DNA from: Pseudomonadota bacterium
GTDB lineage: Bacteria; Pseudomonadota; Gammaproteobacteria; Burkholderiales; Rhodocyclaceae
Direction of reading: 5' to 3'
Assembly: GCA_039805725.1 (NCBI GenBank)
Contig: JBDLTT010000040.1
Coordinates: 1,309 to 65,308, forward strand
DNA length: 64,000 nt
Shown here: in pieces, positions 24,489 through 27,652 of the stretch
Numbering within the stretch: the first letter of the stretch is position 1
How the letters are laid out: each line of letters starts with the position of its first letter
Made by a program: the position numbers and the translations under genes
The notes under the pieces: model-generated
What the model saw: only the letters and a program-made list of their open reading frames with translations
The model's database searches: none
What the model was told of the DNA's origin: nothing

Positions 24489-25823
24489 TCAGCTTAAAGT
24501 TGCGACACTGCAGACCATCGTCAACCAGATCACAGCTGCGCAATAAGCCTGTGCACAGTATCGCAGGTTCAGCTTCGCCAGCAGGCTGGATGCGATTCCG
24601 TAACGCCCCTGAATCGCAAGATTAATGCCGGACATCGGCCCAGCAGCAAGCCCAATCGCCCACGACTGAACAAAGACAAGCGCCAACAACAAAGGTTCCG
24701 GGTGCAAAGGCGCCAACCACGTACCAACCATCGTGATCGAGATCACGGTGTGCACCCCAATAATGGCGAGCAGAATCATCACTGCAAGTACAGCAGCCGC
24801 CTCCAAAGCGCCAAATCTGGTGAACGGCAGCCAGACATCACCCATGCCAATCAACGACGTAAGACCGCTGGCAAGTGTGCCGGCGGCAAGAAATAGAATC
24901 ACTTCACCCGCCATGCTGGGTAAACGATGATGAGCGTGACTCGTGATCGCACGACAGACCAACAGCGGACCGTTACGAAACACCGACAGGACACAAACCA
25001 CCAGCAACGATGCAATACTGATAATCGAAAGGGCCGTCCACCTGGGAAAAAACCAATGACCCACAGCGACCAGTGCGGCCAATAACACTGGGATATACAA
25101 GGCCGATGGACGAAGTGGGTATCCGACAAAACCAGCGGTGTCATTGCCCATTTGACGGATGATGTCCCGCCCGCCGAGGACCAGCAGCACTCCAGCGAAG
25201 GAAGCACCTATCAAAGCAAGACGCAACGGATTCGCCCCTGGCGCATAGGTCAATGCAACGGCCGTGGCCGCAAAAAATGGTGACCAGGTAGCTGCTGCAA
25301 GAAAGGCGCGCACAAGCGCTACTGCTTGCTCCTGCGTGGGCTTCCCCTTCGGGCCGATTCGCTCAGCCATCATAAAAACAGCCGATAAGTTGATTACCGA
25401 ACCCAAGATGTGCACGCCCAGCATCGTGCGCCATAGCGCACCCTTCCCACGCGGCAGACCCCTATCCGTGTCAGGGGGCGGCGCCAGCATCTGCAGAAAA
25501 CTGACGGACACCAACATCCCGAGCAATGCTGAATTCTGTGTCAACAGATTGCCCCACATAGGGCGGCCACCGAGCGCAATGGTTAAAACGAAACCACCCA
25601 TGCCAATCCCTGCCAGCCAGAGTGACTGTTGTTTCTGCGCGCGCGCCAGCCCCGGCCACAATAAGGCACCAGCCGACCATGCGGCTACGCCGGCAGGCCA
25701 CCCAGGCATCCCATAGTCAGTACCAGCCAGTGCTGCAGTCAATGCCAGCAAAGTCAGCAAAAGTGCCACATAGGCACGTCGGTTCGGGAAATCGTTCCCT
25801 GATGCATTATTCATTGGAAACAC
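24489..25823 (-). CDS. Polytopic membrane protein, putative transporter (possibly ion-transporter superfamily)
   Basis: 444 aa with about 12 hydrophobic segments; WSPFF motif; substrate unknown. Confidence 0.7.
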   Translation of the reverse strand: MFPMNNASGNDFPNRRAYVALLLTLLALTAALAGTDYGMPGWPAGVAAWSAGALLWPGLARAQKQQSLWLAGIGMGGFVLTIALGGRPMWGNLLTQNSALLGMLVSVSFLQMLAPPPDTDRGLPRGKGALWRTMLGVHILGSVINLSAVFMMAERIGPKGKPTQEQAVALVRAFLAAATWSPFFAATAVALTYAPGANPLRLALIGASFAGVLLVLGGRDIIRQMGNDTAGFVGYPLRPSALYIPVLLAALVAVGHWFFPRWTALSIISIASLLVVCVLSVFRNGPLLVCRAITSHAHHRLPSMAGEVILFLAAGTLASGLTSLIGMGDVWLPFTRFGALEAAAVLAVMILLAIIGVHTVISITMVGTWLAPLHPEPLLLALVFVQSWAIGLAAGPMSGINLAIQGRYGIASSLLAKLNLRYCAQAYCAAVIWLTMVCSVATLS

Positions 25824-25835
25824 GACAACGGTTTA

Positions 25836-26240
25836 TTAGGGCGCTACCACCGGACGTCCTTCGGCCTTCCAGGCATTCATGCCGCCGCTGGCGTGATAGA
25901 TCGTGCCTTTCACAGATTGTGATTCCATATAATCGGCCACGGCCTTTGACCGACGGCCGCTACGGCACACCAGCACCACGGGCTCACCGGGCTTGGCCAA
26001 TTGTTGCTCCTGCTTCAACCAGCCCGCTTTATCAAAACCACCGCTAAACGAAAACGTCATGAGGCGCGCGCCCTTGATCACGCCCGTCTCTCGCCACTCT
26101 TCGGGTGTCCGTATGTCAATCACCGGCACGCCTTTGGCCTGTAAACGCGCCAGTTCAGCGTTATCAATGTCGATGATCTCGGCCTGCGCCACGATCGATA
26201 CGAGTAGTGATGCTGTGAGCAATAATTTAGTTATTCGCAT
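25836..26240 (-). CDS. Secreted rhodanese-domain protein (PspE-like sulfurtransferase)
   Basis: Signal peptide ending AQA, DIRTPEEW, CRSGRRS active loop, GGMNAW; AAGGAG RBS. Confidence 0.88.
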   Translation of the reverse strand: MRITKLLLTASLLVSIVAQAEIIDIDNAELARLQAKGVPVIDIRTPEEWRETGVIKGARLMTFSFSGGFDKAGWLKQEQQLAKPGEPVVLVCRSGRRSKAVADYMESQSVKGTIYHASGGMNAWKAEGRPVVAP

Positions 26241-26386
26241 TCGGGTGTCTCCTTATGTTTGGACCTACGAATCAGCCTGGCTGCTTTGCGCCGGTCAATC
26301 TCGACCCTGGGCCGATACAGACCTGACGCTAACGCCTTGGCTGCAGCATTCGGGCGTTTCTGGGGACGGCGGGCGCGTTTAGTCAT
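26231..26386 (-). CDS. Small basic protein, ArfA-like (alternative ribosome rescue factor candidate), 51 aa
   Basis: Hand translation MTKRARRPQKRPNAAAKALASGLYRPRVEIDRRKAARLIRRSKHKETPECE; fills the gap between co-oriented genes; below ORF-track cutoff. Confidence 0.6.
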   Translation of the reverse strand: MTKRARRPQKRPNAAAKALASGLYRPRVEIDRRKAARLIRRSKHKETPECE

Positions 26387-26446
26387 CGTCAGGCCAGTTT
26401 ACCCGCCCAAAGTCTCAGGCCAAAAATCTCTGGCACGGCGACCTCA

Positions 26447-27652
26447 TTAATTTCTGATGACGACCCGGCCGACCCAGAACGCGGCCAACACGTTGAAGCT
26501 GGCGGCCACCAAACCAACCCAGCCGTAACCGCTAATGAAGCCATCGGGTGTTTGCGTAATGAACACGCCGCCGATCATACTACCCAGCCCCATAGCCATG
26601 GATTGCACAGTGGCGTTGAGTGAAAGGAACGTGCCCCGCTCTTGCGGTTTGACTGCTGCACCCACAATGGCCAGCAAAGGCACCATGCGGCCAGACACTA
26701 GAATAAAGAAGAGCGTCGTGATGGCCAGCCAGGCGATGAGCGGGACCTGAGTCAGGTTGGTAACGAGGAGCACGGGAACGCAGGCGCCGATAGCGACGAT
26801 GCGGAACACAATGACTTTGCCGAGGCGATCGGCCAGTGCGCCAATGAGACGCGCGGTCACCAGCGTGGCGGCACCGCCGAGAAAATAGATCGCGGGAATT
26901 TGATCGCTGGCGATACCGACATTGGCAATGGTGTAGAGCGTGATGTACGGAATCACAGTGAACCCGCCGAGGATGACCAGACAGGTGAGTAGCATGGCGC
27001 GCAGATGATTTCGCTCGACCGCAACGCGCAGCATCTGGCGGATCGCCCGCTCTTCGCGCCGGGTGTCGAGATGCGCCCGGAAGTCTGGCAAGGCGCGATG
27101 ACCAAACCAGATGAGCCCGACGCTGATGAGGGTGATGAGTACGAACGGCGCTTGCCAGCCCAGGGCGTCGGCCAGCAGTAACGAGAGCGGCACACCGGCA
27201 ATGCTGGATACCGAGAACGCCGTGGCCACATAACCCGTGGCTTTTGCCCGCCGTTCAAAGGGAATGGCATCGGCCACCATGGTATGCACCAGTGCGCCCA
27301 TCATGCCGCCAAAGATACCGGCCAGACCGCGCGCAACAAGCAGGGTGAGAAAACCCGGTGACAGCGCACAGAGCAGCGTGGCCACGGCGAAGGCAACAAA
27401 GATGGCGAGCAAAAAACGCTTGCGTTCGAATCGATCGACGATGGGTGCGATAAGCAGGCCGGCGGCGGCCGCGCTGAAACTGTAACTGGCGACCAGCAAC
27501 GCGAATTCATGCGTCGTGATATTCAGCGCGCTGATGAGAAACGGCCCCAGCGGCATCATGATCATGAAGTCCAGCACATGGCAGAACTGAATGCCGGCCA
27601 GAATGAGCAGCATGGCGCGCTCCGCGTGCGCCAACTGCAGTCGTTGTGTCAT
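26447..27652 (-). CDS. MFS transporter
   Basis: About 12 TM; motif A-like DRFERK and GALADRLGK. Confidence 0.92.
   Translation of the reverse strand: MTQRLQLAHAERAMLLILAGIQFCHVLDFMIMMPLGPFLISALNITTHEFALLVASYSFSAAAAGLLIAPIVDRFERKRFLLAIFVAFAVATLLCALSPGFLTLLVARGLAGIFGGMMGALVHTMVADAIPFERRAKATGYVATAFSVSSIAGVPLSLLLADALGWQAPFVLITLISVGLIWFGHRALPDFRAHLDTRREERAIRQMLRVAVERNHLRAMLLTCLVILGGFTVIPYITLYTIANVGIASDQIPAIYFLGGAATLVTARLIGALADRLGKVIVFRIVAIGACVPVLLVTNLTQVPLIAWLAITTLFFILVSGRMVPLLAIVGAAVKPQERGTFLSLNATVQSMAMGLGSMIGGVFITQTPDGFISGYGWVGLVAASFNVLAAFWVGRVVIRN

Follow-up and report, generated by a model that had tools for sequence, protein, structure and literature searches.

ArfA (alternative ribosome-rescue factor A) is a peptide that releases ribosomes trapped on broken messages. 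It binds RF2 only on the ribosome, RF2 and rescue factor being species-adapted, and KGKGS is its most conserved motif; the E. coli ArfA structures are 5H5U, 5MDV, 5U4I and 5MGP. Within ArfA, Leu19, Leu24 and Phe25 form a hydrophobic patch that binds Trp319, Val198 and Phe217 of RF2, Gln27-Glu30 adds a strand to the RF2 beta-sheet, and the basic tail with its KH motif occupies the empty mRNA channel (PMC5378476, PMC8012679). BrfA of Bacillus subtilis, likewise an RF2-dependent rescue peptide, also has its KH motif lodged in the mRNA channel (PMC8012679), and ArfT of Francisella tularensis, a short basic rescue peptide with no tmRNA-linked control, is a published case of a rescue factor that ends at a stop codon of its own (PMC6299226).

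Here we describe a small gene, found in a 64,000-nucleotide stretch of DNA (hereafter the window), whose product is likewise short and basic, has a KH motif near the end of its conserved core and is read up to its own stop codon. By description only, it differs from ArfT, which belongs to the KGG-repeat stress-protein family, carries no hydrophobic residue at the position of Phe25 and uses RF1 or RF2 (PMC6299226), and, again by description only, from BrfA, which is made from non-stop mRNA like ArfA and is regarded as unrelated in sequence.

A small basic gene between the MFS and rhodanese genes

The small gene occupies positions 26231 to 26386 on the minus strand (51 codons, ATG at 26386, TAA at 26231-26233) and encodes a very basic peptide, with 17 lysines and arginines against 5 aspartates and glutamates and a pI of 11.6. 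Its upstream neighbour encodes a 401-aa MFS transporter (26447..27652, minus strand; Pfam MFS_1, E 1.8e-48), from whose stop codon it is separated by a 60-nt spacer that holds no SD (26387..26446, minus strand). Its downstream neighbour encodes a rhodanese-domain protein of 134 aa whose N-terminal segment is signal-like (25836..26240, minus strand; Pfam PF00581, E 1.6e-14). The end of the small gene and the start of the rhodanese gene overlap by 10 nt (26231..26240, minus strand; ATGCGAATAA), and the small ORF also contains the rhodanese SD, AAGGAG (26249-26254, minus strand), which precedes the ATG of the rhodanese gene by 8 nt. A preliminary description of this DNA had reported the very basic 51-aa frame, its run of 10 nt into the rhodanese gene together with the AAGGAG that it carries, and a TAAACT hexamer 9 nt upstream of the ATG with no SD; each of these was found in the sequence, the frame exactly as it had been quoted and no purine-rich SD lying between the hexamer and the ATG. 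As for the neighbours, NCBIfam matched the MFS transporter best to the myxochelin exporter MxcK (304 bits, well below the 525-bit cut-off), and directly after the rhodanese gene lies a gene for a 444-aa multi-pass membrane protein (24489-25823, minus strand) that matched no Pfam or NCBIfam family.

The source genome, that of a small freshwater betaproteobacterium, is a 1.44-Mb MAG, 83% complete, and we looked for the small gene in the species-level genomes of its genus (Fluviibacter-like Rhodocyclaceae). An orthologous open frame of 49-52 codons, at 61-84% identity, was present in 8 of the 19, and in all eight loci it lay downstream of the orthologous MFS gene, which serves as the synteny anchor (tblastn synteny). 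Across 28 pairwise comparisons of 44 aligned codons, dN/dS ranged from 0.06 to 0.19 and dS from 0.7 to 3 or saturation. Conservation among the eight orthologues spans residue 1 to Lys45, the final 4-7 residues being variable, and the invariant columns of the genus alignment (A2) include N13, A16, L19, L23, E29, R32, R33, R40, K43 and H44. The small gene is thus real and under purifying selection, and conservation of the open frame in relatives, which the preliminary description had named as a test of its proposal, was borne out in these eight genomes. Because it sits at a fixed site after the MFS gene and its synonymous divergence is near saturation, the Fluviibacter-type gene is old in the genus. 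At the same time it is missing from 11 of the 19 genomes, G001 (complete) and G016 (99% complete) among them, and is therefore accessory rather than essential, that is, dispensable within the genus.

The sequence ahead of the gene is less well kept. The block GAGAC-N6-GGCGGGTAAACT, which ends 9 nt before the ATG, is common to the window and to the loci L003 (genome G012) and L007 (G018), is partial in L004 (G005) and was not found in L005, L006, L008 and L009, where other DNA precedes the small gene; the TAAACT block is kept in only three of the eight orthologous loci. A consensus promoter scan at the small gene returned no sigma-70 site, and by eye TTGGCC-16-TAAACT upstream of it agrees at 8/12 positions. 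A terminator scan at the small gene found none, an Rfam search of 25700-26800 gave no match, and the folding of the region was unremarkable (z = -1.5). The mRNA of the small gene may be near-leaderless. We also observed that, within the intergenic block (26395-26415, minus strand), GGCGGG could pair with CCCGCC of codons 5-7 and so enclose the start codon, the 3' arm of this pairing being coding sequence.

That the small gene overlaps the rhodanese start by 10 nt and holds the rhodanese SD would also fit a leader or coupling ORF that merely controls the rhodanese gene, and the ORF could be a chance frame in GC-rich DNA. We regard this as very improbable: relatives of the peptide were found outside the genus by database profile searches, and both the leader-ORF and the chance-ORF readings are ruled out by a rhodanese gene that follows the small gene in only two of the eight loci and by a dN/dS of ~0.1, since selection has thus kept the amino-acid sequence itself and not the open frame alone. 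The two loci are the window and L003 in G012, the latter being the only other locus with the 10-nt overlap arrangement.

Relatedness to ArfA and to DUF7230

The sole Pfam match of the window protein was DUF7230 (PF23876; E 5e-5), at 23.7 bits against a gathering score of 27 bits, which is exceeded by its orthologues P0128 (35.8 bits) and P0002 (30.4 bits). At E<=10 the Pfam ArfA model, PF03889, matched neither the window protein nor any other part of its genome (gathering score 25.5 bits; E. coli ArfA, as a control, scored 89.5 bits), NCBIfam held no match for the small peptide, and a single-sequence phmmer search against PDB chains retrieved no ArfA chain. A profile search of 1.8 billion representative proteins yielded 11 proteins at E<=1e-3 and a search of 5.8 billion clusters yielded 35 family members, so that the family is small. 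Most database homologues carry a precomputed PF23876 match; NCBI names a Fluviibacter homologue "hypothetical protein", and JGI gives five of the family the name "stalled ribosome alternative rescue factor ArfA". PF23876 was found in 4 of 201 genomes of the order, PF03889 in 3 of the same 201 and in 5 of 400 genomes of the class sample, and a literature search found DUF7230 mentioned in no paper. The motif N-P-V-A-K-A-L ... F-R ... V is common to DUF7230 and the small-gene orthologues, whereas L023 and L025, which match DUF7230 best within the order, have V-V-P-D-K-R and acidic tails where the small peptide has V-E-x-D-R-R.

Pairwise and profile comparisons connected the peptide to ArfA more directly. 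With the E. coli ArfA sequence taken from NC_000913, BLASTP gave a gapless alignment with 13 of 45 residues identical (pairwise E 4e-6). We then compared 27 family members by hhalign to 13 diverse canonical ArfA sequences, collected by PF03889 genome searches and including a Neisseria-like type, a Pseudomonas-like type and others, and obtained a probability of 90.5%, an E-value of 1.3e-6 and a score of 35.6, again without gaps (small-peptide residues 7-47 against ArfA 8-48); the genus-only alignment scored 26.5 against ArfA. In 635 controls with column-shuffled ArfA alignments the mean score was 8.1 (sd 1.7) and the maximum 15.1. The score is far above those of the shuffles, and the likeness therefore lies in the order of the residues and not in composition alone, though, the peptide being short and strongly basic, part of the likeness to ArfA is compositional, a part for which the shuffles control. 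An HMM built from the 13 ArfAs alone ranked the small ORF first among all 28,260 stop-to-stop frames of at least 30 aa in its own genome (E 0.0065, 16.8 bits; the next at E 1.7). Among the distant members of the family, P0137 weakly matches both Pfam models (DUF7230 at 0.0033, ArfA at 0.0041), and some look intermediate, with VEKNRKK or RAYRRKGKR.

Judged from sequence, then, the small peptide is related to ArfA, and is best described as a divergent ArfA relative that lies within or adjoining DUF7230; because it fails the curated model, lacks KGKGS and does not have the non-stop design, we do not file it as a strict member of the ArfA family. The preliminary description had called it an ArfA-like divergent factor from a gapless match to the E. 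coli ArfA sequence, and had named a profile match as a further test. The gapless match was reproduced with the NC_000913 sequence, with NA, L, L[YF]R, RVE, R and KH all in register, and the profile comparisons (35.6 against a shuffled maximum of 15.1, and the top rank in the genome) and the kept residues uphold the relatedness to ArfA, whereas formal membership is not upheld, since the curated Pfam ArfA model does not match and Pfam assigns the protein to DUF7230. The same description had further stated that KGKGS and a hydrophobic tail are absent and that translation ends at a stop codon belonging to the gene itself, and these statements agree with what is given below.

RF2-contact residues, mRNA-channel residues and the stop codon

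The conserved core of the peptide spans residues 13-45 (26252..26350, minus strand; N-A..AL...L[YF]R.[RK]VE ... R..KH) and aligns without gaps to ArfA residues 14-46. With ArfA (YhdL, PF03889) it shares the size of the functional part, ~45-50 residues, and the order of motifs, namely N-A, L, L-[FY]-R-x-[RK]-V-E and a basic tail ending in K-H. In this register N13/A14 and L19 of the small peptide correspond to ArfA N14/A15 and L20; Leu23, Tyr/Phe24, Arg25 and Arg/Lys27-Val28-Glu29 correspond to ArfA Leu24, Phe25, Arg26 and Arg28-Val29-Glu30 and are invariant or nearly so in the clade; and P26-[RK]27-V28-E29 stands at the ArfA strand Gln27-Glu30. In the tail, Arg40, Lys43 and His44 correspond to ArfA Arg41, Lys44 and His45, with K43 and H44 invariant. 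Two ArfA positions are replaced, Leu19 by Ala (Ala18 of the small peptide) and Ala18 by Lys, and KGKGS is not kept, the aligned residues being K34-A-A-R-L38. The small peptide also differs from ArfA in its strongly basic N-terminus (MTKRARRPQKRP).

Aligned with E. coli RF2, the RF2 of the same genome shows no gaps and retains Val198, Phe217 and Trp319. A complex prediction for this RF2 and the peptide, off the ribosome, gave no answer (score 0.05, mark 0.32).

The small gene departs from canonical arfA in its 3' end. In three canonical arfA controls, a near-perfect hairpin of -21 to -27 kcal/mol lies between the core and the stop codon, and all the canonical ArfAs that we collected have hydrophobic tails. 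Unlike these, the small gene carries no hairpin, RNase III site or terminator in frame and no hydrophobic C-terminal extension, a part that in ArfA destabilises the full-length product, and in the window an ordinary stop codon (the TAA at its 3' end) follows 6 codons past the core. Among the eight orthologues, only 4-7 codons follow the core and encode short, polar tails (ETPECE, AKII, SKSEDVQ and others), and none has an in-frame hairpin after the core, their strongest local structures lying at varying positions inside it. With no in-frame hairpin and a short polar tail, the peptide should therefore come from intact mRNA by normal termination and should not be under tmRNA control.

Taken with the cellular setting described below, we lean modestly towards a reading in which the small peptide would be an RF2-dependent backup to tmRNA that works like ArfA but is made from normal mRNA. 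Action in the manner of ArfA without the tmRNA-coupled switch is the best supported of the readings because both the RF2-contact residues and the mRNA-channel residues are kept. On a ribosome that has reached the 3' end of a broken message and stalled there, the basic rear part (residues ~30-45, with the invariant Lys43-His44 at its end) would occupy the vacant mRNA channel. The middle part (Leu23, Tyr/Phe24 and Arg/Lys27-Val28-Glu29) would add an extra strand to the RF2 beta-sheet and hold RF2 open; RF2 held open in this way would need no stop codon to cut the nascent peptide from its tRNA. From these residues we infer that the small peptide binds the ribosome, recruits RF2 and acts in rescue.

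The same comparison can be read differently, as a small basic ribosome- or RNA-binding protein of ArfA/DUF7230 stock in which RF2 recruitment was lost or was never present, for instance a plug of the mRNA channel that silences or protects idle ribosomes, or a peptide that acts with RF1 or another partner. The loss of KGKGS, the replacement of ArfA Leu19 and Ala18, the lack of tmRNA-linked control and the dispensability of the gene in the genus all fit such a protein, and ArfT is an example of a similar short basic peptide that is able to work with other release factors (PMC6299226). The best-conserved stretch, however, is L-[YF]-R-x-[RK]-V-E, which corresponds to the RF2-contacting strand and patch of ArfA and not to its channel-binding tail, and the matching pocket is kept in RF2, and we consider a peptide without RF2 recruitment unlikely.

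Trans-translation setting, mobile elements and implications

As with ArfA, the setting is a proteobacterium with tmRNA, SmpB and an RF2 that has the ArfA-binding pocket: the genome encodes SmpB and a tmRNA with the tag ANDERYALAA. At the tmRNA locus (G000:C44:11756-12785), ARAGORN called a normal tmRNA and an overlapping "permuted tmRNA", the latter probably a false call. RF1 and RF2 were the only genes with an RF-1 domain both in this genome and in four of five genus genomes that we searched, among them G001 and G008, which are complete; G014, the remaining one, held a second RF2 copy and no ArfB-sized match. ArfB was thus not found in the genus genomes searched for RF-1 domains, and is also missing from G001 and G016, which both lack the small gene. 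In ~32 of 59 other genera of the family, a third, ArfB-sized RF-1-domain match was present. The two RF2 genes of G014 are near-identical and lie on separate contigs (C33 and C38) of a MAG with 4% contamination, so that strain mixing is likelier than a true duplication.

In this setting, the favoured reading of an ArfA-like peptide would gain a further step. Since the gene stops at an ordinary stop codon and has neither an in-frame hairpin nor a hydrophobic tail, its product would be translated from intact mRNA, and tmRNA tagging would not turn it off. The peptide would thereby back up trans-translation in a standing, not a conditional, manner, in a genus whose searched genomes showed no ArfB.

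Relatives of the small gene also occur in what may be mobile DNA. Around three distant ones, P0135, P0156 and P0158, the genes are small, point the same way and include an ERF recombinase (PF04404) or GP88 (PF17338), and these arrays look like phage early regions. The metagenome contigs that carry P0156, P0135 and P0158 are L046, L077, L078 and L079. The family also has weak PHROG matches (phrog_20887 at 1e-4), and its nearest ESM-Atlas cluster is viral, which we treat as a lead only. Within the genus, G008 has three copies of the small gene in all, the third of them divergent and placed directly after an orthologue of the rhodanese gene. At its first locus (L008:1018-2543; G008:C1, ~464 kb), an antitoxin/RelE-ParE-like pair lies between the MFS gene and the small gene, and a MazF/PemK-like and AbrB-like pair follows the small gene, after which comes an apparently degraded second copy (L008:2307-2543). 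At the other (L071:1076-1641; G008:C1, ~2.27 Mb), a toxin-antitoxin-like pair precedes the rhodanese orthologue (135 aa), which overlaps by 4 nt the divergent 53-aa DUF7230-type gene that follows (MKSTKGGAKKALKPRSAPARALSARMFRKRVEQDRK...).

On these grounds the small gene could instead be an accessory gene derived from a phage or mobile element, recently lodged in a chromosomal hot spot and with an element-centred job such as modulating host translation during infection, or defence or counter-defence. Its patchy presence in the genus and the toxin-antitoxin pairs that flank the copies in G008 speak for such an origin, as do the phage-like arrays, the PHROG matches and the viral cluster. Against it stand the fixed chromosomal site after the MFS gene in all eight genomes and the near-saturated synonymous divergence, and the Fluviibacter type was found neither in IMG/VR, where a pattern scan with alignment A2 returned no relative, nor in named phages, where tblastn found nothing for the window protein or for P0135. 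We therefore hold this account to be decidedly unlikely; it would, in any case, be compatible with an ArfA-like mechanism.

In the window as in G008 the rhodanese gene adjoins an ArfA-like gene, but the gene order differs between the two, and so does the paralogue. This wiring, in which the small gene is followed by the rhodanese gene here and the rhodanese gene by the divergent paralogue in G008, hints at co-expression under a particular stress. A broader proposal, which we offer tentatively and regard as doubtful, is that DUF7230-type peptides would constitute a second, largely phage- and island-borne ArfA branch that recruits RF2 to empty-A-site ribosomes without tmRNA-coupled control, that the domesticated Fluviibacter copy, no ArfB having been found, would be the only backup to trans-translation, and that this branch would have been wired repeatedly to a secreted rhodanese.

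To summarize, the small gene keeps the RF2-contact and channel-binding residues of ArfA and has dropped KGKGS together with the tmRNA-coupled regulatory design. If the peptide rescues ribosomes, the mechanism of ArfA would be separable from tmRNA-coupled control, a Pfam family of unknown function (DUF7230) would gain a testable role, and surveys that use only the ArfA model would undercount backup rescue systems. This is relevant to the question whether rescue activity is universally essential and to how effective inhibitors of trans-translation would be.
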